Source: a virus. Taken from it: DNA of 64,000 nucleotides. The number at the start of each line of letters is the position of its first letter. The stretch's first letter is position 1. The notes below the pieces were generated by a model. The model did not search any database and was not told where the DNA came from. It worked only from the letters and a program-made list of their open reading frames with translations. This document shows positions 12,881-56,660 of the stretch, piece by piece. The translations under genes and the position numbers were made by a program. Where the stretch lies: the IMG/VR virus record IMGVR_UViG_3300045988_182866; one strand, 5' to 3'.

Positions 12881-12890
12881 ATTCAATTAA

Positions 12891-13358: not shown

Positions 13359-13401
13359 GATTTTATAATATTTTTTATCTTATTTTTTGTAGGTGCTCAA
13401 A

Positions 13402-13656
13402 TCAAATATATGAGTTTTGATATTTAATTGAATTGCGGAATTTTTTATCAGGATATTCTTTAATAAATCCTTCAGCAATTTTATCATCCCATATAGGTCT
13501 TTGACTAAATTTAGCACGAATATTGGGTTGATCCTTGGCCTTATATTCCCGATACCATTTTATGTTGTTTCGAGTTTTATAAATCCAAAATACTTTTCTG
13601 CTGTCAAGTTTATAACAAAACTTGTCCGGTATATTTTTTCTATATGATCTGCTCAT
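13402..13656 (-). CDS. basic hypothetical protein
   Basis: 84 aa, K/R/Y-rich. Confidence 0.4.
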   Translation of the reverse strand: MSRSYRKNIPDKFCYKLDSRKVFWIYKTRNNIKWYREYKAKDQPNIRAKFSQRPIWDDKIAEGFIKEYPDKKFRNSIKYQNSYI

Positions 13657-13674
13657 AGCTTTCTAGGATTGTAC

Positions 13675-14801: not shown

Positions 14802-15219
14802 TATATTTTAGATAATAAGAATAATAAAAAGATTTTTGGAATAAACAACCGCCTATTGCAGTTGAATGAGATACAAGCTCATAACCTTTTTTAATTAGAA
14901 AAGAAATAACTTCATTTAATATTTCCTCAAATATTTCTTTATCATGCTCTCTTTCATTTCGAAGAGTAAAGAATAAAAATTTAGGCCGTATAACATATTC
15001 CGGTAAAGAATAATCCTCAATAATAAAATAACCGGTTTTAGGCAATTCTTTAGTATAGCGATCTATTTTTAGATCAATTTGATCAAGAATATATTTGAGA
15101 CAATTAGACTTTTTAATTCTATATTTCTCAATATCAAGAGCTACTTTAAATCGTTTCTTTTCTTCTTTAAGCCTTTGTTTAAGAAAAGTTTTATATTCAT
15201 TTTTGTTAAACCAGCTCAT
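14794..15219 (-). CDS. hypothetical protein
   Basis: 141-aa ORF. Confidence 0.45.
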   Translation of the reverse strand: MSWFNKNEYKTFLKQRLKEEKKRFKVALDIEKYRIKKSNCLKYILDQIDLKIDRYTKELPKTGYFIIEDYSLPEYVIRPKFLFFTLRNEREHDKEIFEEILNEVISFLIKKGYELVSHSTAIGGCLFQKSFYYSYYLKYNV

Positions 15220-15523
15220 TGATTGATGCTTCTTTATAAAAGTTAGAAAGGATAAGAGTTATAATGAAAGGTTCTCCTTTACTCAATTCAATGTCATATT
15301 CAATGCCATTATTATCTTCTTCCCAAATAATATGAAGCTCATCGTTAAACACAACTGTTTCAATATTTTTAATGAGCAGCATATTTTTTACCTTTTGAGT
15401 AAGGTCAAACATTGATCCATCAAATTCAATGATTTTTCCTCCTATAAGGCAATCTTTAATAGTATCTTCATTGCCATGAGATACATGAAGATAAAATGGA
15501 ACTGAAACTGCAAAATTACTCAT
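15206..15523 (-). CDS. hypothetical protein
   Basis: 105-aa ORF. Confidence 0.45.
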   Translation of the reverse strand: MSNFAVSVPFYLHVSHGNEDTIKDCLIGGKIIEFDGSMFDLTQKVKNMLLIKNIETVVFNDELHIIWEEDNNGIEYDIELSKGEPFIITLILSNFYKEASINELV

Positions 15524-15576
15524 AAAAATATTATGAGATAAATCTTATAACTTAAAGGTGTTTAAGAAATAAATGG

Positions 15577-15648
15577 AAGAGTTGCTGGGGTACGATCCCA
15601 GAATAGGAGAGTCAAAGTCTCCTGTGTTGCCAATTACACTACAACTCT
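15577..15648 (-). tRNA. tRNA-Gln (anticodon TTG)
   Basis: perfect 7-bp acceptor AGAGTTG/CAACTCT, D-arm GTGT-AATTGGCA-ACAC, anticodon arm GGAGA-CTTTGAC-TCTCC, T-arm CTGGG-ATCGTAC-CCCAG (atypical T-loop). Confidence 0.5.
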
Positions 15649-15657
15649 ATTTGTTGG

Positions 15658-15729
15658 AGGCTTCAATCGGTTATGCTCCGATGTTACCGGGTTACAAATC
15701 CGGGGTTTTACTGATTAAACTATAAAGCC
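15658..15729 (-). tRNA. tRNA candidate, anticodon TGT (Thr), non-canonical D and T loops
   Basis: cloverleaf with acceptor GGCTTTA/TGAAGCC, anticodon loop TTTGTAA, T-stem ATCGG/CCGAT; packed between two tRNAs with 9- and 5-nt spacers. Confidence 0.4.
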
Positions 15730-15734
15730 GTTGG

Positions 15735-15805
15735 TACCTTGTATCGAAATCGAATCGATGACTTCTGAGTGGAAATCAGATGTTTTACCACTAAACTAAC
15801 AAGGC
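15735..15805 (-). tRNA. tRNA-Gly (anticodon TCC)
   Basis: acceptor GCCTTGT, D-arm GTTT-AGTGGTA-AAAC, anticodon arm TCTGA-TTTCCAC-TCAGA, T-arm ATCGA-TTCGATT-TCGAT. Confidence 0.7.
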
Positions 15806-15827
15806 ATTGGCAAGACACATTCTTTAT

Positions 15828-15882
15828 CTCTACCAATTGAGCTAGTATTCTCTTCTCAAGAATACTTGGGATTCGAACCCAA
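15828..15882 (-). ncRNA. rearranged tRNA-like element (T-arm, closed acceptor hairpin, D-arm-like motif in permuted order)
   Basis: minus strand reads TTGGG-TTCGAAT-CCCAA, GTATTCT-tgagaag-AGAATAC, TA-GCTCAATTGGTAGAG; no anticodon arm. Confidence 0.3.
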
Positions 15883-16015
15883 AACCGTTCATTTTTTAGA
15901 TGACTAAGAATAATTGCTGTTTGTGTCTTTTTTATGAGAAGACTTAGAGATATTAGTTTCATCCTTCCGGATTACTTGTGTTCATTACCACGTAAAGGTT
16001 TCTCTATCAATGAAC

Positions 16016-16087
16016 TCGGGTGCCAGAGGGTCGAACTCTGTTAATCATGCTCCCAAAGCATGCCCATAACCGTCCTGGCCACACCCG
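16016..16087 (-). tRNA. tRNA-Pro (anticodon TGG)
   Basis: acceptor CGGGTGT/GCACCCG, anticodon arm CATGC-TTTGGGA-GCATG, T-arm CAGAG-TTCGACC-CTCTG. Confidence 0.6.
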
Positions 16088-16470
16088 TTATACCGGTATT
16101 GTATGTCAGCTTCCTCAGAAGTACCGGGCTCCTATAGCTTCGTTAATCAGCTAAACGATTATTTCTTAACCCATCGTTCTAATGGTAATCAGTTCCAGCT
16201 CATTCTCTAACCACTAAACTGATAAGTCGTTGGTTAGGTAATTCTTTGTGACTAGCAAAGAAACACTATGTTCGATCTACAATTTTACTCATCACTATCG
16301 AGTCAACGGACTAATAGGCTAAGAGTGGGATCTTCGTATTTTTAATATGTCTATTTATGCGATTTTCGGAAAACCGTCCTATTTCCAAGGATAGACTTTA
16401 ATTCAACAGGCAATCATGTTTCCATGGGAAATTCAACCATTGAATCTTATAAGATTTTATCTTTAAAGAT

Positions 16471-16531
16471 GTAAGACTTAGCCAAAGTATTATCTTTGTT
16501 GCCCGGAATAAACCACGTGGAGGTGTCTTAC
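16471..16531 (-). ncRNA. conserved tRNA 3'-trailer hairpin element (ACCACGTGGAGG family)
   Basis: stem GTAAGAC/GTCTTAC enclosing CAAAGTATTATCTTTG hairpin and ACCACGTGGAGG; about 55 nt homologous to 11120..11180. Confidence 0.4.
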
Positions 16532-16539
16532 TTTATTCC

Positions 16540-16614
16540 TAGTCGTACTGGGAATCGAACCCAGAACCTCTCGCTTATAAGGCAAGTGCTCTCACCAATG
16601 TGAGCTATACGACA
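16540..16614 (-). tRNA. tRNA-Ile (anticodon TAT), 1-72 mismatch
   Basis: D-arm GCTC-ACATTGGTGA-GAGC, anticodon arm CTTGC-CTTATAA-GCGAG, T-arm CTGGG-TTCGATT-CCCAG, acceptor TGTCGTA/TACGACT. Confidence 0.55.
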
Positions 16615-16621
16615 ATTTTGG

Positions 16622-16704
16622 TTCATTGGGAGGGATTCGAACCCTCGAAATCTAAAGATGCCAAATTAAAAGTCTGGTGGTTTTAACCTCTTACCTACCA
16701 ATGA
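16622..16704 (-). tRNA. tRNA-Lys(TTT)-like with 14-nt variable arm
   Basis: acceptor TCATTGG/CCAATGA, anticodon arm CCAGA-CTTTTAA-TTTGG, T-arm GAGGG-TTCGAAT-CCCTC; unusually long variable region for Lys. Confidence 0.4.
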
Positions 16705-27413: not shown

Positions 27414-28409
27414 TTAAGAAATAGGAACTCCTAATTGAACCCAGGTATCGTTAACCCCGATAAAAACTTTACCGTCAGTTTGGAATATCAGGCCGCCATT
27501 AACGACTGTAACAGCAGATGCGTTTGCAACTTGCTGGCTAGTATTACATATCTGAACTTTATCAGATGTAGAAGTTATAGACTGATCTGTCTTAAGGGCA
27601 TATTTATTATCTGACCCAGTTTTTGTATAAGCAGTAGTCAGCAAAGCAAATTTACCATCACATTCAGCTTTTGTGTAGGTTGTAGCTTGCGGTGCAGCTG
27701 CATCTGCAGTGGTTTTAATAGCGGTTACCTCAGTCTTAGTTGCATATTTATTATCCGACTCGGTCTTAGTATAAACATCTGCTGAATTAGCTTTAGAACT
27801 TAGACTTGTATCAACTTCAGTTTTTGTATAGGTAGTAGATTTGGGAGCATATTTATTATCGCATTCAGTCTTAGTATAAGTTGTGGACTGAGGAGCAGCA
27901 GCGTCTGCAGTCGCCTTTACTGCATTTAAAGATGTAATAGTAGCATAGGTTGTTGGAATATTCTGCTCTGCAATTTTAGCATCAATTTGGCTATTAACCC
28001 ATGCTGTTTGAGTAAACTTATTATCGCATTCAGTCTTAGTATAAGTTGTGGACTGAGGAGCAGCCGCATTGGCGGTTGTTTCAACAGTCGTTAAAGCAGC
28101 CTTGGTGGCATAAGTTCCAGAAAGATTAAGAGCAGTAATCTTTTTATCAATTTCTGTATCAACTCCATCCATAGTAAGAAGAGGCTGACCATTGGAAAGT
28201 AAAGTACCCTTTAAATCAATTGTACCTGGAGTACTAAGATCAACAACTAACGTATTGTTTAAATCTTTAATATCTTTTGTACTAAGGCCATTAGGAAAAA
28301 TATCCTCGGAAGAACCAATCTTATGAAGACGAACTTCATATCCGTCCGGAACAGTCACAATCTTAGTTCTATTTGCCGTTACATCAAAATACCCGTCTGT
28401 ACTATTCAT
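27414..28409 (-). CDS. tail fibre-like structural protein with internal tandem repeats
   Basis: repeated AAAPQSTTYTKTECDNKY units; about 50-nt direct DNA repeats inside gene; T/S/A-rich. Confidence 0.5.
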   Translation of the reverse strand: MNSTDGYFDVTANRTKIVTVPDGYEVRLHKIGSSEDIFPNGLSTKDIKDLNNTLVVDLSTPGTIDLKGTLLSNGQPLLTMDGVDTEIDKKITALNLSGTYATKAALTTVETTANAAAPQSTTYTKTECDNKFTQTAWVNSQIDAKIAEQNIPTTYATITSLNAVKATADAAAPQSTTYTKTECDNKYAPKSTTYTKTEVDTSLSSKANSADVYTKTESDNKYATKTEVTAIKTTADAAAPQATTYTKAECDGKFALLTTAYTKTGSDNKYALKTDQSITSTSDKVQICNTSQQVANASAVTVVNGGLIFQTDGKVFIGVNDTWVQLGVPIS

Positions 28410-29324: not shown

Positions 29325-30116
29325 TTAACTCAATGCGTCCAAATGAATTTTCTTCATCAGGGACTGAATATTTTTTACCCAGTAACGATTTCCGGCTGCA
29401 TCCCAGCTTGGAGCATACCGTTTTTGAATTTTATTAATATCAATCAAACCCTTTTCATGATATTTCTCTCGAAGCAACTTACCCATATATATAAGGCACT
29501 CGTCCACAGATTCAAATGACCTGTAAGCATTTTTAGAGCCTTTAATACCGCCCAAATTATTCTTGCTTCTTGCTAATTTGCTTTTTCCATATCCAGATTC
29601 AAGAGCGATAAGGGCACAAAAGAAATGAGGCGAAATAGAATTAGCTTCCGCAATCTGAACCATTAATTCTCCTTTGCCTTCAAGAACTCCTCCCTTAAAC
29701 TTCTCATTGACGACATTTACATCAATCTTAGAAATGACTGAAGTGTCCTTGAGATCAGGAGCATCATCTTTAGTAATTTTGGACTCATATCTCTTAATTT
29801 CAGACTTAAGGACAGAAACTTCCGACTCTAAAGTAAGTAAGTCTTTTTGTTTAATTTCCAGCTCTTTTTTAGCTTTTGAGATTTTATTAATTTGTTTATC
29901 TCGTTGAGCAAGGGTAGATTTATTAGAAAGAAGAAGATTTTTAAGATTATTAATTTCTTTCTTATATTGTTCTTCTTTCGTTTTAAGTTCAAGTTTAGTT
30001 TCCAAAACTTGAGCCTGAAGCGAACCTGTTGTTTGATTATGATAAGCAAATCCAGATACGATGGAAAAGCTGAGTATAAAGACAACAGCCGTCTTTTTTA
30101 ATGATTGTGTAGTCAT
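29325..30116 (-). CDS. peptidoglycan hydrolase (FlgJ-type glucosaminidase domain) with N-terminal TM and coiled coil
   Basis: C-terminal ALIALESGYGKSKLARSKNNLGGIKG matches mannosyl-glycoprotein endo-beta-N-acetylglucosaminidase domain; N-terminal hydrophobic segment and long heptad-rich region. Confidence 0.7.
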   Translation of the reverse strand: MTTQSLKKTAVVFILSFSIVSGFAYHNQTTGSLQAQVLETKLELKTKEEQYKKEINNLKNLLLSNKSTLAQRDKQINKISKAKKELEIKQKDLLTLESEVSVLKSEIKRYESKITKDDAPDLKDTSVISKIDVNVVNEKFKGGVLEGKGELMVQIAEANSISPHFFCALIALESGYGKSKLARSKNNLGGIKGSKNAYRSFESVDECLIYMGKLLREKYHEKGLIDINKIQKRYAPSWDAAGNRYWVKNIQSLMKKIHLDALS

Positions 30117-30193
30117 AATACGATTGTCCAGAAGCTATACGATAGCAAACTGGATAATATGAGGATAAATGACCGAATCCTCAAAGGTTTTTA

Positions 30194-30451
30194 CTATTTA
30201 TCTGAATTCAAAATAAGCACAATATTACCATGTGAATCAATCAAATAAATCTTTTTAATATCATTGTTATAGATTTGATTTTTAAACTCAATAAGAGGAA
30301 TTAAACCAAAAACATTTTCCAAAATATTAAAGCATTCGGCATCTGACATTGTACCCAGACATTCCCAACTATAAGTTTCACTACACCGGTGGTGAAGGAA
30401 ATTTCTAATTTGATTGATATGTTTTTTTGAAGTAAAATAACGATAATCCAT
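30194..30451 (-). CDS. hypothetical protein
   Basis: 85-aa ORF. Confidence 0.35.
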   Translation of the reverse strand: MDYRYFTSKKHINQIRNFLHHRCSETYSWECLGTMSDAECFNILENVFGLIPLIEFKNQIYNNDIKKIYLIDSHGNIVLILNSDK

Positions 30452-30473
30452 ATTTATATTATAAAAATAGCCT

Positions 30474-30833
30474 TTATATTTGTAAGTGCTTAGAAATTAA
30501 ATCTTTAATTTGTTGATTGTTCTTTTTCCAATCATTTTCCCAAACTTCAATTAATTTGATACCATTTTCTTTACAAGCTTTTCGTTTATTCTTGTGATAA
30601 CCTGGTTCTTTCTCTTCGTGAAATTGATGCCAATATTCACCATTATATTCAAAAGCTAATTTAAGTTCGGGAAGATAAATGTCCAATTCTTTTCCGCCAA
30701 TAAATTTTCGAGTATTTTCTAAAATCTTGCCAGAATAAAGAGATTTAATATATTGGCAAAGCTCTTTTTCACCCCTGGAATAAGTTTGCGGGAAACATGC
30801 TCTGTCTTTAGCTGAGTATATGAAAGCAAACAA
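30474..30833 (-). CDS. DUF559/Vsr-like PD-(D/E)xK endonuclease domain protein (stand-alone copy)
   Basis: ELDIYLPELKLAFEYNGEYWH; about 80% nt identity to 3' ends of 35830..36735 and 38412..39503. Confidence 0.65.
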   Translation of the reverse strand: MFAFIYSAKDRACFPQTYSRGEKELCQYIKSLYSGKILENTRKFIGGKELDIYLPELKLAFEYNGEYWHQFHEEKEPGYHKNKRKACKENGIKLIEVWENDWKKNNQQIKDLISKHLQI

Positions 30834-30896
30834 AAATAATTTAGAAAAATATTAAAAAATACTAAATTTAAATAAATTAAAGGTTAAATATATGTA

Positions 30897-32069
30897 ATGA
30901 TTCATAAAGCATATAAATTCAGATTACTCCCAACAAAGGAGCAAGAGGAATTTTTATGTAAATCATTTGGTGCATCTCGATGGGTTTATAATTATTTCTT
31001 AAATTATAGAGATTCTAAATTCAAAAATGAAGGAGTAAGAGTTAATTATTTTGAGATGAAGAGAATGTTTCCTGAACTTAAAAAACAGGAAGAAACATCT
31101 TGGCTTAAAGAAATAAACTCTCAATCCCTTCAATGTGCTTTAATGAATCTTGATAGTGCTTATATTAAATTCTTTAAAGGATTATCAAAGTTTCCAAAAT
31201 TTAAGAAAAAGAATGGTAAACAGTCATTTGAAATTCCGCAACATTGGAAATTAAATGATAATACTGTTAAAATTCCTAAATTAAAAACTCCATTAAAATT
31301 TATTAAGCATCGTGAAATAAAAGGAGAAATTTGTTCTATCACTATTTCTAAATCGAAAACAAATAAGTATTTTATTTCTTTTTGTTGTGAATTAGAAAAC
31401 TATCATCAGCAAACTAAAGGTTCTGAAGTTGGTATCGATTTGGGTATAAAAGATTTATTGATATGTTCAGATGGAACGAAATATACAAATCATAAATTTT
31501 ATAAGAAAAATTTAAAGAAGTTAAAAAATCTTCAAAAACATTTAAGTCGAAAGAAGAAAGGTTCAAAGCGAAGAGAAAAAGCTCGTTTAAAAGTCGCAAA
31601 AGCTTATGAGAAGATAACCAATTCTCGTGAAGATTTATATCACAAGGTTTCTAACGATTTAATGAACAAATATTCTTTAATTTGTCTTGAATCTTTAAAT
31701 GTTAAGGGAATGATGAGAAATCATAAATTAGCATGTTCTATTCAAGATGCCGCTTGGTATAGTCTTATTTCAAAAATAGAATATAAAGCTAAATGGAAAG
31801 GTATTAATGTTGTTAAAATAGACCAGTTTTATCCGAGTAGTAAAACTTGTTCGGTATGTAATTGGAAGAAAAATGATTTAACGCTTAAAGACCGTGAATG
31901 GGTTTGCCCCAAATGCGGTACTCACCACGACAGAGACTTAAATGCAGCTAAAAACATTCTTGCTTGGGGTAAACAGTTGATTACTCTATCGGATGGAACG
32001 TCCGATTACGAGCATGGAGATGAAGTAAAACTAAAATCGTCTAAAAAGACGAGAACGTATCATCTATGA
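30897..32069 (+). CDS. tnpB: TnpB (IS200/IS605 OrfB)
   Basis: N-terminal YKFRLLPTKEQEEFL; C-terminal CSVCNWKKN..CPKCGTHHDRDLNAAKNI zinc finger plus RuvC-III. Confidence 0.85.
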   Translation: MIHKAYKFRLLPTKEQEEFLCKSFGASRWVYNYFLNYRDSKFKNEGVRVNYFEMKRMFPELKKQEETSWLKEINSQSLQCALMNLDSAYIKFFKGLSKFPKFKKKNGKQSFEIPQHWKLNDNTVKIPKLKTPLKFIKHREIKGEICSITISKSKTNKYFISFCCELENYHQQTKGSEVGIDLGIKDLLICSDGTKYTNHKFYKKNLKKLKNLQKHLSRKKKGSKRREKARLKVAKAYEKITNSREDLYHKVSNDLMNKYSLICLESLNVKGMMRNHKLACSIQDAAWYSLISKIEYKAKWKGINVVKIDQFYPSSKTCSVCNWKKNDLTLKDREWVCPKCGTHHDRDLNAAKNILAWGKQLITLSDGTSDYEHGDEVKLKSSKKTRTYHL

Positions 32070-32074
32070 AATGC

Positions 32075-32230
32075 TTAAAAGAAGGCGGTTTTACCGCCGA
32101 AGCTACTCAATCTTCAGCTGAGTAGAGGTTCACAACCCTGGTAAACTGATAGAGAATAGTCATACCTATCAGGACCATGCTTTTTTATGGCTTTTTCAAT
32201 AAACTTTTCAGTTGTAAACTTTACCATAAA
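32075..32230 (+). ncRNA. candidate omegaRNA/RE region downstream of tnpB
   Basis: stacked hairpins ggcggttttaccgcc and ctactcaatcttcagctgagtag directly after tnpB stop. Confidence 0.35.
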
Positions 32231-32234
32231 TAAA

Positions 32235-32277
32235 AAATCGCATATATGCCATTATTTGACATATATGCGATTTTTGC
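32235..32277 (+). terminator. rho-independent terminator
   Basis: 14-bp stem aaatcgcatatatg/catatatgcgattt then TTTTG. Confidence 0.6.
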
Positions 32278-32284
32278 TTAAAAA

Positions 32285-33445
32285 TTAAAGAGTTACAATA
32301 AACCGGCTAATTGAGCCTGGAGCTGTAGACACCGAATATCCTAAACGTAGGACCAAAGCCAGCATGGTAGCTCGAGAGATCTTATTCTTTCGACCAACAC
32401 TGCCGCAAAGCTGGGCAATATTAGTTCCTTGAATTATAGTGGGTCCTCCCAGAAAAACTGGAGACAGAGTACCGTCTTCCCTATTAACAAAATGATTCTG
32501 AATATTTCGTTCAATAGCTTCCCGAGTCTTGGAAATGTTGGCAGGGCTGCACATTTCATCAATTATTCCCCGATCAGAAGCTTCAACATTAACCGGAGTA
32601 CGATCCTTGGAACATTCCTTAACGTCAATGCCATCAACTTCTACATCAGGAGAAGTATAAGCTTCCTTAATTTCATTAAGAACTTTATATTTACTTACAC
32701 GGCATTTTTGACATTCACAATCAGTAGGAACTGAAACAACATCTTGAGGATTAACTTCTACCGCAACTACGCGCTTTCCAAAACCCTTAGCATAATCATA
32801 AGATCCAACATGCAATCCGGCACTACACCAGTTATTTCGATTTGCATCAACATCTGCAACTACTACTTCAATGACATCGCCGGGATTATTTCGAATTTGG
32901 TAATGCCCGTTTACTTTACCTTGAAGCACTCTGGTTTCGGCATTACCATGAAGCGAATACATATCTTCTCCAACACCCTTATAGGCAATAAAGGTACCTT
33001 CGGAAGTAATAGGCAATTCCTGATAAGAAAGGAAGTCATAAAGCTCTTCTCTAGAAGTTTCGGAAGGATTAGCCATCAAGTTATCAATAAACTTAAAGTA
33101 ATGGGTAAAATCAGTACAACCAGACTTCCAAAGAGAAATAAGCTTTTTTTGAAGACATTTGGGAAGAATCTGAGTCTTATAAGAAGCAATAGTAGTAATT
33201 ACACCATTTTCATCTCGTTCAACAAATTGGAGATTATCGTAATCTTTAATTGTTTCAGAAACGGAATTAATGATATAAGAAGTGGTATTTTCCTTAAGAA
33301 GCCTGAGAAGAGTTTTTTCATCATTGGCCATTACCGCATCGACAATATCAGTATAGCGAACATCATCGGGAGTAATCTTAACTGCTCGACCATCAACAAA
33401 GAAGGTCCAGCCTGAGGCATTCATAATATATGGAATAGAATTCAT
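32285..33445 (-). CDS. hypothetical protein (GC-richer)
   Basis: 386-aa ORF; CxC..C.KC cysteine cluster. Confidence 0.45.
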   Translation of the reverse strand: MNSIPYIMNASGWTFFVDGRAVKITPDDVRYTDIVDAVMANDEKTLLRLLKENTTSYIINSVSETIKDYDNLQFVERDENGVITTIASYKTQILPKCLQKKLISLWKSGCTDFTHYFKFIDNLMANPSETSREELYDFLSYQELPITSEGTFIAYKGVGEDMYSLHGNAETRVLQGKVNGHYQIRNNPGDVIEVVVADVDANRNNWCSAGLHVGSYDYAKGFGKRVVAVEVNPQDVVSVPTDCECQKCRVSKYKVLNEIKEAYTSPDVEVDGIDVKECSKDRTPVNVEASDRGIIDEMCSPANISKTREAIERNIQNHFVNREDGTLSPVFLGGPTIIQGTNIAQLCGSVGRKNKISRATMLALVLRLGYSVSTAPGSISRFIVTL

Positions 33446-33456
33446 ATTTTGTTTAA

Positions 33457-35805
33457 TTAATATAGTTTATAGTTGAGTTTTTTGAGAATTCGCTTAAAGG
33501 TTAATTTAACTTTATCTTTTGTTTGAAATCCTGCACCATTTAAAACCGCTTGTATTTTTTCTTTTACAGAAGAAGTCATAATATAGGTTGAAATATTATC
33601 CAAACAAACTGATGACATAGTATAAAAGAAATTCAATATTTCTTTATCTGAAAGCTTTTTAATTTCAGCATCAAACTCTCTTTGAATATTATAACATTGA
33701 ATTGAAAGATCAAATATATCCATTATGAATCGGTTAAATCCTCCTCTATAAAGATTAATTTCATATCTTGTAGAGATAACCGGATAATCAGGAGTCGATG
33801 CAGAAATTTTTGGAGCTGTATATCCTGTTACAGATTTAAAATCAATATCATAAATCCTGCAGATATTAATGATTTGATCTGGAAGATAAACGAGTTTATG
33901 CTTTTTACAATATTCAATATAGGTTTCTTTCCATTTAATTTCTATAGCTGAAATGCACCCGAGAGAAACAAATTTATCGTAATGGTTTTTATAAAGCTTT
34001 GCTATTCGTTTAATGCCAAAATCTGTACAAAGATGAGACTGATAAAGCTGCGTCGGACTATTATAATTAACGAAATTTGTACAAAAGGCCAAATAAGAAT
34101 TAAGGTAGTTATCATTATTCATGCGCATTGAAGGATAAAATACTAACGTATTTTTGTATTCTTTCTCATCAATAATTTCACCGGTATAATAATCCCGGAG
34201 AACTACCGCTTCACCATCTGAAGACTTTATTCTTTTAGGCCTGACATATGTTGAATGCTTAACAATATCAGAATAATTAAACCAATCGATATTTTGCCTA
34301 AAGCACGGCTTGTCGTTAAAAGTAAAGGCCGTCCTTAAATTAAGGAAATTTGCTTTTTCTTCTTCATCTTTAACAAAACAAAAAATATGAGTTCTTCGAA
34401 GATCAAAGACTTCTGCTCGATAATCATTCCCCCTAAGGTGAACAAGATAATTATAAAGGGCATTAATTATTTCACCATAAGGAAGCTTGATAGGATCTTT
34501 ATCTTGAACGATAAAGATTATTTCACCGTCAAACTTCTTAATGGTCGGATTTGAATAAAGGCTTTTCGTTTTAAGATTAATATTAGTAATATTGCCTGAA
34601 CCTGCATAATAATTTTTTGCAACTGAGCAAACAGTATTCAAATAGCAATCCGGCCATTTAATAATTGAACTATTTCGATAAAATAAAGTACTTTTTGAGT
34701 TAGCTTTATTGATAATATCTGAACAAAGTAAATCACTGTCAATAAGTTTATCGACATAATCATTAATAGTCTTTTCATAATTTTTATTAATGATTTTAAA
34801 TTTACCCTTAATCCAATCATTTGTGAAATTGTTTATTTCAATCGATTCTCTGGTAGGAGAAATCGGAATTTCACCGCGTTTAAAAAATAAAAGAACGGTA
34901 CAAGCATTTTTAATGATATTATATTCATTAAAGATTTCATTAGGAATATCAATCTTGTAAATGTTATCCCCATCATAAGCATAATAATTACAGCTCTTAA
35001 AAAATGAAGAATAAAAAGTATTAGAAGACCGGTAATTCGGAATCAGCAAAACTGTATCTTTAATATAAAGAACTCGGGATTTGTCAAGAAATTCTTTATC
35101 TCGATACTTTGCAAATCTTGGGGTTTTTTCGTAAGGGACATAATTTTCCCATTTATCCTCCGGTACGTCTTCAATGTCTATTTTTTCCGGATAACTCCTA
35201 AGTTCAATGACAGGTTCATCACTATTGAAGCCAAAAGTAATATACGCATCCTTGATTAAATCAAGGAACTTGTAATAATCATCAGAATTATTAAGAGGAA
35301 TCTTTACCTCAATACCCGTATCATTCAAATCACAGGGTTCAGAATGAATCAAAGAAGCAATAGAATCATTACCATCAATGCTTGAAGAAAATGTATATTT
35401 TGTTCCTTCAAATCGAGAAATTACCAAATAAAGGCCTGTATATGCCGCAGGAGCCTTAGACCCGATTCCAAATCCTCCAATGGATGTATTTTCTTGATTC
35501 TTGGTAGATTCAAAATATTGAAAGAAAACTTGAAAAGTATCTTCTTTGCTAAGACCCCTGGCAAAATCACGAATAGAAAGTTCATTTTTTGTAAGATGAA
35601 TAGAAACAGGCCTTTTAATGCCATATTTTACATGTCCATCCAAAGCATTGCTTAACGTTTCAAAAAGTGTTGCCTTAAATTTGTCTGAATAGATCCTATC
35701 GCGCAAAATAGAAATTGCCATTCCTACGCGCTCGGCCGAGATAGACTGTTTGACCTGTTCGGCTATACCTCCGCAAATACTTTTATTCTCTTCAAAAACC
35801 TTCAT
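33457..35805 (-). CDS. GHKL-superfamily ATPase, HSP90/HtpG-like N-terminal domain
   Basis: N-box FETLSNALDGHVK (compare HSP90 ELISNASDALDK) and G2 box GGFGIGSKAPAAY in first ~130 aa of 782-aa protein. Confidence 0.6.
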   Translation of the reverse strand: MKVFEENKSICGGIAEQVKQSISAERVGMAISILRDRIYSDKFKATLFETLSNALDGHVKYGIKRPVSIHLTKNELSIRDFARGLSKEDTFQVFFQYFESTKNQENTSIGGFGIGSKAPAAYTGLYLVISRFEGTKYTFSSSIDGNDSIASLIHSEPCDLNDTGIEVKIPLNNSDDYYKFLDLIKDAYITFGFNSDEPVIELRSYPEKIDIEDVPEDKWENYVPYEKTPRFAKYRDKEFLDKSRVLYIKDTVLLIPNYRSSNTFYSSFFKSCNYYAYDGDNIYKIDIPNEIFNEYNIIKNACTVLLFFKRGEIPISPTRESIEINNFTNDWIKGKFKIINKNYEKTINDYVDKLIDSDLLCSDIINKANSKSTLFYRNSSIIKWPDCYLNTVCSVAKNYYAGSGNITNINLKTKSLYSNPTIKKFDGEIIFIVQDKDPIKLPYGEIINALYNYLVHLRGNDYRAEVFDLRRTHIFCFVKDEEEKANFLNLRTAFTFNDKPCFRQNIDWFNYSDIVKHSTYVRPKRIKSSDGEAVVLRDYYTGEIIDEKEYKNTLVFYPSMRMNNDNYLNSYLAFCTNFVNYNSPTQLYQSHLCTDFGIKRIAKLYKNHYDKFVSLGCISAIEIKWKETYIEYCKKHKLVYLPDQIINICRIYDIDFKSVTGYTAPKISASTPDYPVISTRYEINLYRGGFNRFIMDIFDLSIQCYNIQREFDAEIKKLSDKEILNFFYTMSSVCLDNISTYIMTSSVKEKIQAVLNGAGFQTKDKVKLTFKRILKKLNYKLY

Positions 35806-35829
35806 GCTTAAATTACAATAACAAAATTA

Positions 35830-36735
35830 CTATAATTTTTCTCTAATTTTCTGGAGGTGTTCAGATATTTCTTTTTTAATGGTTTCTGCATTAGTTTTCC
35901 ATTGGCTGTCCCAAACTTCAATTAAAGTGATTCTGGCATCTTTACAAAGTTGCCTTTTATTTTCATGATAGCCAGGTTCTTTTTCTTCATGTATTTTATG
36001 CCAGTATTCGCCATTATATTCAAGGGCAAGTTTTAATTCAGGAAGATAAATATCCAATTCTTTTCGACCAATAAATTTTCTTGTATTTTCGAGAATTTCT
36101 CCAGGATAAATTGATTTGATAAAATCGCATAACTCCTTTTCACCCTTAGATTTCTTTTCATGAAGGGCACATTTTAAACATCCCCGCCCAGTTAAGTGAT
36201 TATACGCCATTTGAGCAAATTTACCATGGACAGGACAAATAATAATCACATTTGTTTCTGCATTAATATAAATTGTTTTCGAATAATCGAATTTATGTCC
36301 ATGCACTTTTTGAGCACGGTTAATAAATTCTTTTGTGGTTAAACGCTCCAATCCTACGCAACTTTTGCATCCATGCCCCCTTAAATGATTGATGGGATAT
36401 TGCTGAAAAGGTCCATGAACAGGGCAAATAATAGGTACTTTTGCATGATTATTTTTATAGTTTACTTTAGAATAATCATATTTGTTCCCATGAACCTCTC
36501 TTGCTTTCTTTATAAACTTCTCAGTCGTTAAAGATTTTGCATCAACTGCACATTTAAAACATCCCTGACCTCGTAAATGGGCTCCGGCTCTTTGTTGGAA
36601 AGGTCCATGAACCGGGCAAATAACAGTTATAGAACTATAAGCATTTTTATAATTTACTTCAGAATAATCAAAAAAGTCTCCATGTATTTTTCTAGCCCTG
36701 TCAATAAAAATTTCAGTGGTTATTCTGTTGGGCAT
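35830..36735 (-). CDS. putative homing endonuclease: 3x zinc-binding KYDYS repeat modules plus C-terminal DUF559/Vsr-like nuclease
   Basis: repeats F.KA..VHG.KYDYS.V.Y....K..IICP.HG.F.Q....HL.G.GC..C; C-terminal ELDIYLPELKLALEYNGEYWH. Confidence 0.65.
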   Translation of the reverse strand: MPNRITTEIFIDRARKIHGDFFDYSEVNYKNAYSSITVICPVHGPFQQRAGAHLRGQGCFKCAVDAKSLTTEKFIKKAREVHGNKYDYSKVNYKNNHAKVPIICPVHGPFQQYPINHLRGHGCKSCVGLERLTTKEFINRAQKVHGHKFDYSKTIYINAETNVIIICPVHGKFAQMAYNHLTGRGCLKCALHEKKSKGEKELCDFIKSIYPGEILENTRKFIGRKELDIYLPELKLALEYNGEYWHKIHEEKEPGYHENKRQLCKDARITLIEVWDSQWKTNAETIKKEISEHLQKIREKL

Positions 36736-36810
36736 AATAGTTTTTATTCAAAAATAAAAAATCCTCAGATCAATTAAGACCTGAGGATTTTCGGTTATCA
36801 TGATTACAAA

Positions 36811-38415
36811 TCACTTTTCAGATTGTTCATCAACCAAGAATGTTTCTGTTGTTAGAATCAAACCTGCCGATGCAGCGGCGTTTTCAATTGCGCAACGACA
36901 TACACTAAATGGATCAATAATTCCCGCTTCTAACATGTCTACTAACTTTTGCGTCTTAATATCAAACCCGATACTGCCTTTAGCTTTTGCAACCTTTTCG
37001 ATGATAACATCCGGTCGTTCAACTCCGGCATTCTCAAGAAGAGTCTTAAGAGGAATATCAAGAACCTTTCGCATTAAGTTAACACCGGCATTAAAAGATT
37101 CATCTCCTGTTTCAAACTTAATAGACTTGTTTTCTTTAATCTTAGCGAGAACAGATCCTCCTCCTGGAATAACTCCGGATCGTAAAGCCGCTTGACAGGC
37201 ACACACCGCATCGTCTACACGATCCTTAATTTCATTTAATTCAGATTCAGAATTACCTCCGATATTAAGAACACATACTCCTTGGGCAAGCTTGGCAATT
37301 CGCTTATTAAGCACATCTTCTTCCCAGGAACCAGGACTGCAATTATCTCGTTCCTCTTTAAGCAAATCAATATGTTCTTTAAGCCTTTGAGGATTTCCTC
37401 CGCCTTTTAAGAAAGTTGTATATCGTTTATCACAAACAATCTTTTCACAGGTGGCAAAATCTTCCTCTCTAATAGAATTAAAATCACGTGAAAGAAGTTC
37501 AGTAAAATATGTACCCCCTAAAGTAATTTCAAGATCTTCCATTTCTCTCTTCATGCCGTCTCCATATCCGGGACACTTAATGGCACAAATGTTAATAATG
37601 CCTTTAATCTTATTAATGACAAGAGTTTGAAGAACTTCGGATTCAATATCCGGAGCGATAATAAACAAAGGCCTTCCACGAAGTTCTTTAGTATTAAAGA
37701 CCTTTTGAAGAATAGGCATAATTTGTTGATTATTCGTCAATTTAATTCCGGATAAAAGAATTAAGGGATTTTCAAGAATACATTCTTGTTTAGTCGTATT
37801 ATTGACAAAATAAGAACTCATCCAGCCTCGAGGAACTCGTAAACCTGCAATAAACTGGGAAGAAGATTCATTACTCCTGCTGTCATTAATAGTAATGGAA
37901 CCATCCAAACCTACTTTTTCAACAGCTTCAGAAACAAGATGTGCAATTTCTTTATCCCAGTTGGTAGAAACTAAAGCAATTTGGTGAATCTGTTCTGGAG
38001 AACATTCCTGCTTAATATTTTCTTTAATATAGTTGGCAATTGTCTTTGCCGCTGAAATAACTCCGCGTTGAATTAAAATCGGATTATAACCTGTTTCAAT
38101 CAGCTTCATGCCTTCAGATGCAATAGCCCCAGTGAGGATTGCGCTGGTACTGGTCCCATCACCAGCCTGGTGCGCTGATTGCTCGGATGCTTGACGAATA
38201 ATATCTGCACCCATTTTTTCAAGTACATCAGGCGGATTTACATGACGAGCTACTGTAACGCCGTCTTTTGTAATATATGTCGCATTACCCATTCGATATA
38301 TTACATTTCTGCCGCCAGGCCCGAGCGTCGAAGAAACTGCATTAGCAAGTTTCTTTACACCATTAAGCAGTTTCTTCCTGCCTTCATTTCCCATATAAAT
38401 GTTTTGTTGAATCAT
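36811..38415 (-). CDS. groL: chaperonin GroEL
   Basis: 534 aa; LGPGGRNV, AGDGTSTSAILTGAIASEG, VVALVSTN..-type blocks. Confidence 0.85.
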   Translation of the reverse strand: MIQQNIYMGNEGRKKLLNGVKKLANAVSSTLGPGGRNVIYRMGNATYITKDGVTVARHVNPPDVLEKMGADIIRQASEQSAHQAGDGTSTSAILTGAIASEGMKLIETGYNPILIQRGVISAAKTIANYIKENIKQECSPEQIHQIALVSTNWDKEIAHLVSEAVEKVGLDGSITINDSRSNESSSQFIAGLRVPRGWMSSYFVNNTTKQECILENPLILLSGIKLTNNQQIMPILQKVFNTKELRGRPLFIIAPDIESEVLQTLVINKIKGIINICAIKCPGYGDGMKREMEDLEITLGGTYFTELLSRDFNSIREEDFATCEKIVCDKRYTTFLKGGGNPQRLKEHIDLLKEERDNCSPGSWEEDVLNKRIAKLAQGVCVLNIGGNSESELNEIKDRVDDAVCACQAALRSGVIPGGGSVLAKIKENKSIKFETGDESFNAGVNLMRKVLDIPLKTLLENAGVERPDVIIEKVAKAKGSIGFDIKTQKLVDMLEAGIIDPFSVCRCAIENAAASAGLILTTETFLVDEQSEK

Positions 38416-39503
38416 GATTTACAATTATTATAGCATGTTTCTTTGATAAACTTTTTTAATTTTTCCTTATTCTTTCGCCACTGAGTATCTAAAATTTCTA
38501 TTAATTTTATACCTTTTTTCTCACAATCTTTTTTCTTTTGAACATGATAGCCTGGATATTTTTCTTCCTTTAACTTATGATGGTAATCACCGTTGCATTC
38601 AAAGGCTAGATTTAATTCAGGAAGATAAACATCAAGTTCTTTTTTTCCAATAATATCTCTTGGGTTTTCTTGAACCTCGCCTGGATAAATTGATTTAATA
38701 TATTGACAAAGTTCTATTTCACCTTTAGATCTTTTTGATGCCGCTAAGCATTTAGGGCAACCGCTTCCGCGTAGATGCGTATTGGGCAACTGTAAAAATG
38801 GGCCATGTTTTTTACAAGTTATAATAATTTTTGTTTTTGCATTTTTATAAGCTACCAAAGAATAATCATACTTGTCTCCATGAGTAGCTCTAGCTTTTTC
38901 TATAAATTCTTCAATAGTTCTCTTATTATTTCCGGCACAAAATGGGCAGCCGGAGCCTGAAAAATGCTTATCAGGGCGTTGTTCAAAAACTCCATGTATG
39001 GGACATATAATTTTTACTTTTGTTCTTTTATTTTTATAAATTACTAAAGAATAATCATATTTGGTTCCATGAACTTCAATAAATCTTTTTCTAATCTCTT
39101 CCTCAGTTAAAAACTGATTTTTAATTGCACATTTTTTACATCCTTTTCCTATTAAATGGCTTGATGGATCTTGCTTAAGGGTACAACCACATTTATTACA
39201 TTTTATGATTACCTCGGTTGTTGAATTTATATAATTAACTAAAGAATAATCATATCGGCCTTTCCCATGAATTTCTTCAGCTTTTTCTATAAATTCTTCT
39301 GTAGTCCTGTTAAATCCTTTACATTTAGGACAACCATGGCCCATTAAATGAATGTTGGGAATTTGCTCAAAGTAGCCATGTATGGGACAAAATATTTTAA
39401 TTAATGTTTTTGTGTTAAAATATACAACTTCAGAATAACCATACTTATTGCCATGTATTTCAATAGCTTTTTTAATAAACCCTTTAGTTGTTAATCTTTT
39501 CAC
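38412..39503 (-). CDS. putative homing endonuclease: 4x KYDYS zinc modules plus DUF559 nuclease
   Basis: paralog of 35830..36735. Confidence 0.65.
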   Translation of the reverse strand: MKRLTTKGFIKKAIEIHGNKYGYSEVVYFNTKTLIKIFCPIHGYFEQIPNIHLMGHGCPKCKGFNRTTEEFIEKAEEIHGKGRYDYSLVNYINSTTEVIIKCNKCGCTLKQDPSSHLIGKGCKKCAIKNQFLTEEEIRKRFIEVHGTKYDYSLVIYKNKRTKVKIICPIHGVFEQRPDKHFSGSGCPFCAGNNKRTIEEFIEKARATHGDKYDYSLVAYKNAKTKIIITCKKHGPFLQLPNTHLRGSGCPKCLAASKRSKGEIELCQYIKSIYPGEVQENPRDIIGKKELDVYLPELNLAFECNGDYHHKLKEEKYPGYHVQKKKDCEKKGIKLIEILDTQWRKNKEKLKKFIKETCYNNCKS

Positions 39504-39662
39504 GATTTTTAATCATTATAGCACGAATTAATAAATTTCTGCCCGCAATTTGAATCTAAATCTTCGAAAGATATGGAATTACCGCAAGGAGGATGCTTAT
39601 ATTGAACGGGAAAATATCCTTTCTGGCAGCAGCAAGAAGACAGAAGAAATATTACTAATAAT

Positions 39663-40085
39663 TTAACCCCAAGTGAATAATCCATAACCCCAGTACCGGC
39701 TTATATTAGGAAGAGGATTTGGTGTTTCTTCAAGGAAAATAGTCTGGCCGGGATGCCGCTTTTCATATACTTGCTTTACAAGGAAAATAATAAGAGATAT
39801 GAAAAAGTCAATTATAAAATGAACGTTATCTGTCTGTCCCTGTAAAATATTTTCGATGAGGTCAAATTTATTTTCTTTAAGATAATCAATTAGCTCAACC
39901 GGAAGAATATCATCTTCGCCAGCGGCAAAAATATTATCATCAAAATCAAACCCTAGTTCAGATTTAATGCCATCTAAACATTGTTCAAATTCTTCTTTAG
40001 TAAGATCAGTCTTTAACCATACTATATCTCTTTCATCATGTCCATCTCCGGACAAATCACCATATTCAAAACTAAAAATATTCAT
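39663..40085 (-). CDS. acidic hypothetical protein
   Basis: 140-aa ORF. Confidence 0.4.
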   Translation of the reverse strand: MNIFSFEYGDLSGDGHDERDIVWLKTDLTKEEFEQCLDGIKSELGFDFDDNIFAAGEDDILPVELIDYLKENKFDLIENILQGQTDNVHFIIDFFISLIIFLVKQVYEKRHPGQTIFLEETPNPLPNISRYWGYGLFTWG

Positions 40086-40145: not shown

Positions 40146-41195
40146 TTAATTACCAGCAGGTTTAAAATCTGCAATATTCAGAACCTTAAACAAACCATCG
40201 TTTTGATTAGCTCCTCCCATAATCAACATTGAAGGAAGTTTAATATCTTTAAAAGATTCAAAAAACTTAATTCGTGCATAATTACTTCCCATTGCTGCAT
40301 TCAATTCTCGAATTGCTTCAGCTTCAAGCTTCTTACCTTGAGCTTCTGCGGTCTTCATAGCAAGAAGAGCTTCTGCTTCATTTTTCTTTTGAGCAAGCAT
40401 GGCCAAAGACTCTTGTTCTCGGCGATACCTTGCAGCATCAGATTCAGCCTTAGCCTGAAGAAGTTTACCTTGAGCTTCTGCAGCCATCTTATTGGCAATT
40501 GCCCGGCCTTCTGCATTAGCAATCTCTTCGGAACGCTTTGCAATTTCAAGCTGGGTAGCCTGGCGTTCATATTCCTGAGTAGCCTCAACCTTCTTAGTAA
40601 TACCAAGAGTCACCGATTCAGGTGGAATAGTGGAACCAATAGTTACACTTTCAACAATAAATGGAGTGCCATTAAGTTGCTTCTTAAGGTTAGTTTCTAC
40701 CATCTTGGTGATTTCCGGAATCCTAGAAGGAGCTTCTAGACCTTTAAACTTAGCAATAGCAGATCGTACTTCGGTACGGAAAGGTTGCTGAATAAATGAA
40801 GCGTAAGCATCTTGAGCAATAGCTTCCGGGCATCGAGCTGTTTCAGAGATAGCTCCATAATTTTCAACAAATTCCTTTACTTTTTCACTGTCGATACGAT
40901 AAACAAGATAAGATTCAGCCTTCATCTTAAGCTGGTCCGAACTACGAACATCATCAAAAGTTTCAGTCTGAGTATAAGGAGTTACGCAAATCTTAATAGA
41001 ATTCTGCCTCCATACCATACCTGTACTACCGGGTCCTTTAATTACTTGCTTAAATTCCTTCGAACCAAATATAGGTTCGGAATAAACATAACCTGCGTAA
41101 CCGCCATCGATTTTTTCATTTGAAAAATTAACGGCAAAAATAATAGCCGCAACAACGGCAATAATTAGAAATAGAGCTGCAAAAAAATCCTTCAT
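40146..41195 (-). CDS. SPFH/band-7 (prohibitin/HflK-like) membrane protein
   Basis: N-terminal TM helix, SPFH-like core, A/E/Q-rich coiled-coil tail. Confidence 0.7.
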   Translation of the reverse strand: MKDFFAALFLIIAVVAAIIFAVNFSNEKIDGGYAGYVYSEPIFGSKEFKQVIKGPGSTGMVWRQNSIKICVTPYTQTETFDDVRSSDQLKMKAESYLVYRIDSEKVKEFVENYGAISETARCPEAIAQDAYASFIQQPFRTEVRSAIAKFKGLEAPSRIPEITKMVETNLKKQLNGTPFIVESVTIGSTIPPESVTLGITKKVEATQEYERQATQLEIAKRSEEIANAEGRAIANKMAAEAQGKLLQAKAESDAARYRREQESLAMLAQKKNEAEALLAMKTAEAQGKKLEAEAIRELNAAMGSNYARIKFFESFKDIKLPSMLIMGGANQNDGLFKVLNIADFKPAGN

Positions 41196-43245: not shown

Positions 43246-43710
43246 TTAATTTCCTGCGTATTCAACTAAAAGAACAGAAATATCATGCTTTGTTCGAAAA
43301 TTATACAAAAGATTTTCAAATTCTTTTGGTTTTACTCGTCCTATACCGCATCCCAAAAAAGGCATTACAACAGTATTAAGATGATGAGTGTTCATAACTT
43401 CAAACAAATCGCAAAGAGACAAAGAAATATCTCCCAAATTTGCTATTGAACCAGGATAAAACATGGTTGGAACATTGGCAATCATTTTCCAATTATCTTC
43501 ATCGGACAAATAAAAATAATGGCCTTTACCAATATTAACCATTTTAGAATTACAAGAGTTCTGATAACTCCAGTACATTTCAGGAAATTTATCGGCAAAA
43601 GCTTTTGCAACTCCTGCTCCCATTACTCCGATACAATTGACGGCATTGCAAATTACATCCGCCTTTGTATCAAAGATATTTCCTTTTGTTTTAATAACTT
43701 TAAGAGACAT
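43246..43710 (-). CDS. Macro domain protein (ADP-ribose binding/hydrolase)
   Basis: GNIFDTKADVICNAVNCIGVMGAGVAKAF macrodomain signature. Confidence 0.75.
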   Translation of the reverse strand: MSLKVIKTKGNIFDTKADVICNAVNCIGVMGAGVAKAFADKFPEMYWSYQNSCNSKMVNIGKGHYFYLSDEDNWKMIANVPTMFYPGSIANLGDISLSLCDLFEVMNTHHLNTVVMPFLGCGIGRVKPKEFENLLYNFRTKHDISVLLVEYAGN

Positions 43711-45365: not shown

Positions 45366-45697
45366 AATTCTTTAATTTCTTCGGGAAGAACTTTTTTACG
45401 AAGCAAACTTTCTTTAAACCATTTGAAGTTTTTAATAGAAAACCAGCTAAATTTTTCATCAGGCTTAAAAAATTCTTTCTTAAAAGATAGAAGATCGTTA
45501 AATATTTCCACCCTCATCTGATTATAAAATTTATCATCTGTAACTACAATAATTTGACCATTTTCCTTTTCATAAAGAGTCAAAATATCTCCTTCTGTTT
45601 GACCAAAATAAATTTCTTTGGCGTTAAACTTATATGTTATTCCATCAGATCTATTGACAATAGTCCGATCAATACAGTCTTTACAGTCTTTATCCAT
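45362..45697 (-). CDS. hypothetical protein
   Basis: 111-aa ORF. Confidence 0.4.
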   Translation of the reverse strand: MDKDCKDCIDRTIVNRSDGITYKFNAKEIYFGQTEGDILTLYEKENGQIIVVTDDKFYNQMRVEIFNDLLSFKKEFFKPDEKFSWFSIKNFKWFKESLLRKKVLPEEIKEL

Positions 45698-56628: not shown

Positions 56629-56660
56629 GATGATTTCTATCATCCTTAAATATACTCTAT

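Follow-up and report, generated by a model that had tools for sequence, protein, structure and literature searches.

Does a chaperonin gene become mobile when homing endonuclease (HE) genes bracket it? The question is raised by a 64,000-nt stretch of viral DNA (IMG/VR virus record IMGVR_UViG_3300045988_182866; hereafter, the window), in which groEL lies between two of four related open reading frames (ORFs) that we call HE A, HE B, HE C and HE D (Table 1). An initial annotation had proposed that these endonucleases mobilise the chaperonin region or cause it to recombine. We find that the four genes are very probably free-standing, selfish homing endonuclease genes (HEGs) of the Hef-like kind already known in phages, belonging to the Vsr-like ‘EDxHD’ family. 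The sequences do not support mobility of groEL, but they do strongly support repeated deletion of the neighbouring rIIA-rIIB genes by recombination between HE B and HE A.

A human-gut metagenome contig of 202,854 bp (L023) contains the window with 100% identity. Relatives were gathered by groEL scans and exact-protein look-ups, which yielded more than 30 loci (designated, like other contigs, by L numbers) on contigs of up to 204 kb. These loci are 95-100% identical to the window and belong to a human-gut phage with genomes of ∼200 kb, which is T4-related, as it carries rIIA and rIIB. The phage is very common, since a 140-aa (amino acid) marker gene that adjoins groEL in empty-site genomes occurs in 738 indexed blocks. 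A megablast of window positions 30000-40000 against 50,697 phage records gave no match, and scanning IMG/VR with rIIA gave the same two contigs again and nothing else, hence no relatives of intermediate distance in which groEL synteny could be compared. The sole distant groEL relative recovered, L003, shows no synteny with the window.

All four HE genes encode a nuclease domain of ∼100 aa with the pattern GEKEL...ELD(I/V)xxPE...LAxExNGxYWH...YHxxK...C, the central part of which had been recognised in the initial annotation. The domain had also been described as C-terminal, which is correct for HE A, HE B and HE C, but in HE D it is central (∼aa 245-350 of 509). Based on tblastn within the window, HE A and HE B share 73% of amino acids (DNA, 77% over 251 bp), HE A and HE C 59% (DNA, 73% over 275 bp) and HE B and HE C 52% over 289 aa (DNA, 65% over 634 bp); the earlier figure of about 80% DNA identity over about 300 bp for three copies was thus overstated. 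HE D, with 36-43% amino acid identity to the other three, is a distinct lineage. Judged by the E-values of these comparisons (1e-14 to 1e-92), the similarity among the four copies is far beyond chance. HE B and HE C match phrog_559 (E 5e-60 and 2e-75), while HE D matches phrog_3339, ‘homing endonuclease’ (E 1e-65). Similarly, tblastn homologues are found in 1,266 phage records, many of them annotated ‘Hef-like homing endonuclease’ or ‘homing endonuclease’, and a metagenomic protein search returned 4,335 homologues. The DUF559 label initially given to the domain does not correspond to Pfam membership: the isolated domain has no match to PF04480 even at E up to 10 and nothing in Pfam at gathering score (best, MTES_1575, E 0.026, and PvuRts1I-like_N, E 0.02), and a precomputed PF04480 match is present in 1 of 120 listed homologues (P0077). 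NCBIfam gave nothing meaningful for the HE proteins.

The fold of the domain points to the same family. An AlphaFold2 (AF2) model of HE B aa 130-301 has a pLDDT of 95, and Foldseek aligns the HE B model with I-Bth0305I (3r3p, TM 0.79, rmsd 2.9 Å), with the DUF559 structure 3hrl (TM 0.78) and with 1vsr (TM 0.52), as well as with RAP (Vsr-like) domains. A profile of the domain searched against the PDB likewise found 3r3p first and 3hrl second, while a single-sequence phmmer search of the PDB found nothing. Based on the model, the catalytic domain has a Vsr-like alpha/beta nuclease fold. The core residues are kept in all four copies and in subfamily homologues: the E of GEKEL, the D of ELD, the E-x-N of EYNG and the H of YWH. 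The E, D, N and H of this core align to E170, D196, N208 and H213 of 3r3p and are invariant or near-invariant. As far as sequence can tell, the core is not obviously dead, yet it is variant. The earlier reading of the genes as putative homing endonucleases is therefore upheld by a PD-(D/E)xK-type, Vsr-like fold with a conserved catalytic core. The initial annotation had named a dead core, together with a gene order free of polymorphism among relatives, as evidence that would speak against it; we find the core conserved and gene content polymorphic.

Tandem zinc modules make up the N-terminal portions of HE B and HE C. Their number had been given correctly, three in HE B (aa 6-62, 70-126 and 133-189) and four in HE C (aa 5-61, 67-125, 133-189 and 196-252), but not their size, because each has a 57-59-aa core and a period of 63-66 aa instead of about 50 aa. 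The modules follow the pattern FIxKAxxxHGxKYDYSxVxY...C-x2-(H/C)G...HLxGxGC-x2-C. Pfam reports DUF723 at 28.1 bits in HE B (cut-off 20.9) and DUF4379 at 43.6 bits in HE C and 71.5 bits in the intact HE A of L002 (cut-off 24.5), and describes both families as ‘probable treble clef zinc finger’; in the AF2 model a module consists of a helix, a beta-hairpin and a helix. The modules are thus predicted to be tandem treble clefs of the CapR/DUF723/DUF4379 type with the expected C-x2-(H/C)...C-x2-C ligands. Tandem Repeats Finder detected no DNA-level tandem array in the module genes because the modules are too diverged, and the dispersed HE repeats are visible only by blastn/tblastn self-comparison. 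Elsewhere the same modules are fused to ECQGxQH-type, FHGDYWHGNP-type and T5orf172 nucleases, in agreement with Barth et al. 2023 (PMC10448857).

HE C is an insertion with precise junctions at the start of groEL. Among 30 informative relatives, 11 genomes have HE C and 19 do not. The empty site reads ...GTGCTATAATAATTGTAAATCATG, leading into groEL, and the 1,092-nt insert is flanked by a diverged 24-mer upstream and an exact 24-mer downstream, such that blast segments of the window and the empty site overlap at 39523-39500 and 38435-38412. The GTG start codon of HE C is now supplied by the upstream 24-mer, a diverged version of the native translation-initiation region of groEL. The downstream 24-mer encodes the last residues of HE C (CYNNCKS, then stop) and holds the groEL start codon, the HE C stop and the groEL start overlapping as ATGA. 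Fixed differences between genomes with and without HE C are confined to the 24-mer. HE C is found on both upstream haplotypes, and its presence is associated with flanking single-nucleotide polymorphisms (SNPs) at an r2 of 0.7-1.0 within 150 nt and of no more than 0.4 (mostly <0.3) beyond that distance, on both sides, the value for groEL SNPs past 150 nt being ≤0.3; the genomes with HE C have the first ∼130-230 nt of groEL in common.

HE D, which is built of an N-terminal DUF7487 and zinc ribbons, the central Vsr-like nuclease domain and a C-terminal extension of ∼160 aa, shows the same kind of polymorphism. The inserted block (56623-58193) is present in L023-L026 and absent in L018-L020, which have a clean empty site with 6 nt in place of 1,571 nt; here TAAACA/TAAACATG makes a mini-repeat. 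The genomes with HE D have 7-8 private substitutions, mostly synonymous, at the very end of the upstream amidase gene (final ∼50 nt), but none in the preceding 747 nt and 1 in 800 nt downstream. A target-site variant or a short co-conversion tract would be expected to leave such a cluster. Both HE C and HE D, then, display what is looked for in an HEG, presence or absence at a fixed site between near-identical genomes with precise junctions, and both ORFs are intact wherever they are present. Between the amidase stop and the HE D start (window 56626-56660), there is also a hairpin, GGATGATTTCTATCATCC, found only in genomes with HE D; it may act as a terminator or control translation of the HEG.

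HE A is in a different state. It had been described as a stand-alone nuclease beside tnpB, but the window is identical to the intact 372-aa gene of L002 on both sides of the tnpB element, over the first 94 nt of that gene beyond the element and again from 30780, inside ORF A, which forms the C-terminus of the L002 gene. An HE gene has therefore been split here, with ORF A as its 3′ remnant and its 5′ remnant beyond tnpB. In the window ∼720 nt of zinc-module coding sequence are gone, the tnpB element is in their place, and a 26-nt patch (30781-30806) is unlike the intact alleles and resembles another Hef paralogue (CFPQTYS). A simple tnpB insertion was considered for the window allele and rejected, because of the missing ∼720 nt and the foreign patch at the left flank. 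In L013, the same element splits the last module precisely at GGTTGCC/CTAAA, with all modules kept; it is inserted directly 3′ of TTTAG in the element orientation and without target duplication, and the left flank has a 26-nt patch, which reads like a Hef paralogue, in place of 20 nt. These sequences suggest that the tnpB element was acquired by recombination from another Hef-like gene, and window-type genomes would then have gained an additional deletion. Across the relatives, HE A is intact (372 aa, four modules) in L002, L008, L017, L164 and L170, frameshifted in L001, L004, L165, L167 and L168, internally deleted in L005 and L010, and interrupted by tnpB in the window as well as in seven further genomes.

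The tnpB element itself lacks tnpA. Its left end directly follows TTTAG (30807-30811), a candidate target-adjacent motif (TAM), and its right end is ...GAGGTTCA. The Pfam domains of TnpB are HTH_OrfB_IS605 (E 6e-17), OrfB_IS605 (RuvC; E 1e-28) and Cas12f1-like_TNB (zinc ribbon; E 6e-27). The 3′ region of the element folds (z = -3.1) and is a putative omega-RNA scaffold; an Rfam scan of the tnpB region found neither an omega-RNA nor any other family. The predicted TnpB target is TTTAG followed by GGCAACCTCTTCCGCT. This exact empty target occurs in none of the fetched loci, the omega-RNA guide matches only the flank itself within the window, and a search of 185k genomes and IMG/VR for close TnpB copies found only homologues of ≤50% aa identity. 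We also observed two short sequences on the (+) strand, TTTAGGGCAACC (window 38751-38762) and TTTAGGACAACC (39324-39335), which are antisense to GCPKC codons of HE C modules 4 and 1 and resemble the TAM plus flank of the tnpB site in L013; two such matches are not above chance. A second, unrelated TnpB (366-370 aa, Cas12f-like TNB), which is not in the window, occupies at least two other polymorphic sites in relatives.

HE B varies in yet other ways. It has 2 modules in L001 and L166, 4 in L009, L012, L013 and L161, and 3 in others. It is frameshifted in L004 and L168, broken at its 5′ end by an IS1595-family element in L011 and L012, and mostly deleted in L002, in which 372 nt stand in its place and a 3′ stub is left. 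Thus, the HE genes decay by frameshifts, by in-frame and out-of-frame deletions, and by tnpB and IS1595 insertions. The IS1595 element encodes a 341-aa transposase and cargo that includes a TRL-like lipoprotein and a DUF805 membrane protein; the cargo looks bacterial and could be a hint at the host. Together with starts that are poor in Shine-Dalgarno sequences, it makes a member of the Bacteroidota the probable host. The 372-nt replacement in L002 (11666-12037) looks non-coding and has a strong hairpin.

Recombination between HE B and HE A is evident from hybrid genes: 11 of the 14 close protein clusters combine the N-terminus of B with the C-terminus of A. Seven contigs (L154-L160), produced by several assemblers and including one of 197,844 bp at ∼68x, have a hybrid HE gene and lack rIIA-rIIB. 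These contigs run from groEL through the hybrid HE and an 85-aa gene (window 30194-30451) to glucosaminidase; neither rIIA nor rIIB is there, nor are tnpB and the start of A. Each hybrid makes a clean single switch from B to A in the nuclease-coding region, and the switches fall at four different crossover positions, which implies no fewer than three or four separate events. B and A are old paralogues whose module sequences are unrelated, and this makes deletion the parsimonious direction. We considered chimeric assembly of the rII-less contigs and rejected it, based on the longest exact B/A match of only 17 nt, the use of several assemblers and the four breakpoints; an assembly artefact is unlikely. 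Hybrids make up ∼6% of B-type sequences, a rough indication taken from cluster-member counts. From these sequences, the case is strong that B x A recombination has repeatedly deleted rIIA-rIIB in natural variants. The suggestion that the dispersed repeats serve as substrates for recombination is thus confirmed, although the place is rIIA-rIIB and not groEL.

We infer from these observations that the HE proteins cut DNA at particular target sites and that their genes were gained at the positions they now hold. The tandem zinc modules, folded independently, would jointly read a long DNA site, and the Vsr-like domain would cut a co-infecting phage genome that lacks the HEG; repair by recombination with the HEG-bearing genome would then transfer the gene, and no more than ∼150 nt of flanking DNA, to the empty site. 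The four copies would be independent selfish insertions at intergenic positions, each at a different stage of a life cycle or shared with another copy: HE C and HE D spreading, as their clean presence or absence suggests, HE B near fixation, variable and sometimes broken, and HE A decaying. groEL would be a mere neighbour. As directly oriented paralogues, the copies also serve as recombination sites, a crossover between B and A in the nuclease-coding region deleting rIIA-rIIB and leaving a single hybrid HEG.

The nucleases might instead have a selected function in competition between phages, through marker exclusion, degradation of the DNA of relatives, or stimulation of recombination or amplification of adjacent loci, a possibility that we regard as rather doubtful. 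Free-standing T4 HEGs do cause marker exclusion (reviewed in PMC2988022), and SegB is reported to amplify anti-defence loci (PMC13096335). The genes that HEGs flank in the window, rIIA-rIIB and groEL, are of the accessory or host-interaction kind, and repeated B x A recombination at only 77% identity would be easier with breaks nearby. However, frequent pseudogenisation argues against strong selection on any one copy, PADLOC gave no matches, and the data do not separate benefit from selfish drive.

It is also conceivable, though unlikely, that DNA breaks, whether from the endonucleases or from the resident TnpB, drive the recurrent homeologous (77%) recombination, toggling rII as a facultative cassette, and that in parallel tnpB spreads specifically among Hef-like genes. 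At TTTAG/GGCAACC, the candidate TAM and the guide fall on the codons for the conserved ‘G-C-P-K’ of the zinc modules.

Several points weigh against the interpretation of these genes as homing endonucleases gained by insertion. First, cleavage by the proteins studied here is something we infer from sequence, and the similarity to the solved family member is marginal (3r3p, E 0.023). The HE genes lack Asp at the fifth EDxHD position (Asp222 in I-Bth0305I, Asp97 in Vsr); depending on the alignment, this position is taken by the invariant His of ‘YH’ or by a variable N/Q/H/E/Y, and the cleavage activity of proteins without the final Asp could differ. Second, generally high recombination would likewise erase linkage, and the frameshifts come from metagenome assemblies, in which they are not checkable at the read level. 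Third, presence or absence could in principle stem from loss only, if ancestral and possibly domesticated nucleases or zinc-finger DNA-binding proteins were being deleted without any homing. The many degenerate alleles of HE A and HE B fit such a history, no empty site for either gene was found among the relatives, and the 24-nt repeat at HE C (20/24 identical) and the TAAACA mini-repeat at HE D could permit precise excision by recombination. Nevertheless, we consider loss as the only process improbable: HE C occurs in more than one flanking haplotype and its linkage is very short, the synonymous substitutions private to genomes with HE D cluster at the junction, as a target-site variant or co-conversion from a foreign donor would predict, the HE C and HE D ORFs have stayed intact, and phage annotations widely treat the family as mobile. 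The founding member of the family, Hef, was reported to promote homing.

The arrangement that first raised the question, groEL bracketed by HE C and HE B, is real, with HE B starting 76 nt past the groEL stop, beyond a hairpin and T-run terminator. Indeed, the order proposed for ‘HEG-islands’, in which HEG-bracketed genes are mobilised (Barth et al. 2023, PMC10448857), occurs twice, as C-groEL-B and as B-rIIA-rIIB-A. Among the available close relatives, however, groEL is not inherited together with the HEGs. Comparison of synteny revealed the polymorphism of flanking HE genes that the initial annotation had looked to, but each of the 34 related loci that extend over groEL has the gene, irrespective of HE C and HE B, which vary independently; L002 keeps groEL with HE C absent and HE B deleted. 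No groEL-less variant was found among the related genomes, and the close homologues include no C/B chimera (N-terminus of C with C-terminus of B). The nearest groEL in the 50,697 phage records is 38.6% identical, and thus there is no sign of recent transfer. Because groEL is in all loci, linkage to HE C is gone past ∼150 nt and groEL-less recombinants were not found, HE-mediated mobility of groEL is not supported by the sequences compared. That HE C and HE B cooperate to carry groEL between phages as cargo is highly improbable, since the HEGs on its two sides and the start of groEL common to HE C-bearing genomes are outweighed by all of these results and by the distant L003, in which a Hef-like gene lies ∼6 kb from its own groEL without shared synteny. 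The relatives compared are near-identical genomes and the distant L003, and an older mobilisation of groEL may have occurred.

Free-standing Hef-like HEGs provide the closest parallel to the window genes. Phage Hef-type endonucleases have been placed in the Vsr-like EDxHD family (Taylor et al. 2011, PMC3239194). Hef of phage U5 and Hef-like HEGs (F-LimIII/VII/VIII/X of LIMEstone1, CP220, Acj9 Hef) likewise stand free between conserved T4-related genes and belong to the same protein families, phrog_559 and phrog_3339. The window HE proteins nevertheless have ≤47% identity to any deposited phage protein over most of their length (up to 56% over a shorter stretch), their zinc modules differ in number and vary in number within the population, and their neighbours are groEL, rII and amidase, compared to nrdB for Hef. 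I-Bth0305I, the EDxHD prototype and the best solved match by both profile and fold, has in common with them the E...D...E-x-N-G-x-Y-W-H core and a C-terminal catalytic domain of ∼100 aa. It differs in its final Asp, in being intron-encoded and in its NUMOD/HTH (helix-turn-helix) DNA-binding motifs (PMC3239194), whereas the window HE genes are free-standing and encode tandem zinc modules. The wider DUF559/Vsr superfamily (3HRL, 1VSR) shares the fold and a D / E-x-(D/N)-G-x2-H signature, but the window proteins have no Pfam PF04480 or Vsr match, and the Vsr zinc site is absent from their nuclease domain.

The T5orf172 HEGs (Barth, Dunham & Seed 2023, PMC10448857) resemble the window genes in their DNA-binding portion and in their evolution. 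Both have the same ‘beads-on-a-string’ CapR/DUF723/DUF4379 modules, gain or lose modules in frame via recombination between degenerate repeats, recombine with other HEGs and bracket conserved genes. The nuclease is Vsr-like/EDxHD in the window and GIY-YIG-like in the T5orf172 HEGs; recombination between HEGs deletes rIIA-rIIB in the window phage, compared to domain swapping in the T5orf172 HEGs, and the bracketed groEL, unlike the genes of HEG-islands, shows no co-mobilisation. Similarly, the tnpB element has the TnpB domain set and the structured 3′ region at the flank of IS200/IS605 tnpB-only elements (OMEGA), and in L013 it is inserted next to a candidate TAM without target duplication. In the window, by contrast, it is associated with the loss of ∼720 nt of the HE gene and the 26-nt foreign patch.

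Table 1. Positions of the HE genes and associated features (window coordinates unless an L number is given)
Feature	Position	Strand	Description
HE A	30474-30833	-	From the ORF listing
HE A 3′ remnant	30474-30833	-	Nuclease domain only; TTG start; first ∼9 codons derived from the element
tnpB-only IS200/IS605-type element	30812-32132	+	tnpB ORF 30897-32069 and structured 3′ region
HE A 5′ remnant, MVKFTTEKFIEKAIKKHGPDRYDYSLSVYQ	32135-32227	-	Ends at right end of tnpB element
HE B	35830-36735	-	From the ORF listing; intact, 301 aa, Hef-like; three zinc modules and nuclease domain
groEL (Cpn60)	36811-38415	-	PF00118, E 1.7e-59
Downstream copy of 24-nt repeat, TGCTATAATAATTGTAAATCATGA	38412-38435	-	Identical to empty-site sequence
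HE C	38412-39503	-	Intact, 363 aa, Hef-like; four treble-clef zinc modules and C-terminal Vsr-like/EDxHD nuclease domain
Upstream 24-nt imperfect direct repeat, TGCTATAATGATTAAAAATCGTGA	39500-39523	-	Junctions relative to empty sites of L001 and L002
HE D	56661-58190	+	509 aa; second lineage (phrog_3339)
IS1595 element, 4.4-5 kb	L011 4590-9035; L012 1464-6449		Inserted near window 36645-36724
Second TnpB sites	L002 5007-6244 (window 43257-43259); L005 1565-2815 (window ∼45600-45634)		Also in L166 and L169

Other parts of the window and its relatives also vary or carry recognisable genes. Seven tRNA genes are clustered at 11181-16704 (-), based on Rfam. A 331-aa protein made of repeated TTYTKTECDNKY-type units is encoded at 27414-28409 (-); its gene, especially at ∼27650-27900, aligns discontinuously among relatives with 86-93% identity, which suggests variation in repeat number. 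A 232-aa gene between an RlaP-like gene and a DNA ligase gene (L162 495-1193, also in L164 and L170), which lies outside the part of the window covered here, is polymorphic for presence or absence. Band_7/SPFH, PspA_IM30, macro-domain and thioredoxin proteins are encoded at 40146-41195 (-) and by the genes upstream, and the Band_7 gene is truncated or split in L156, L158, L166 and L155.

As both the family and the way it spreads were known before, the finding itself is ordinary; its value lies in the data set, which offers population-level support for the ideas of Barth et al. 2023 (PMC10448857). For annotation, short ‘stand-alone nuclease’ ORFs beside tnpB can be split pseudogenes, and bracketing by HEGs alone is no evidence that the bracketed gene is mobile. 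A single 10-kb stretch of an abundant gut phage brings together invasion by HEGs, change in module copy number, decay by frameshift, capture by tnpB and IS1595 elements, and deletion of rIIA-rIIB between paralogous copies. The rII genes are determinants of sensitivity to host abortive-infection systems. If the unlikely scheme set out above, of toggling and of tnpB spread among Hef-like genes, were true, an RNA-guided nuclease would parasitise the genes of protein-guided homing endonucleases, and rIIA-rIIB would be toggled in natural gut phage populations.

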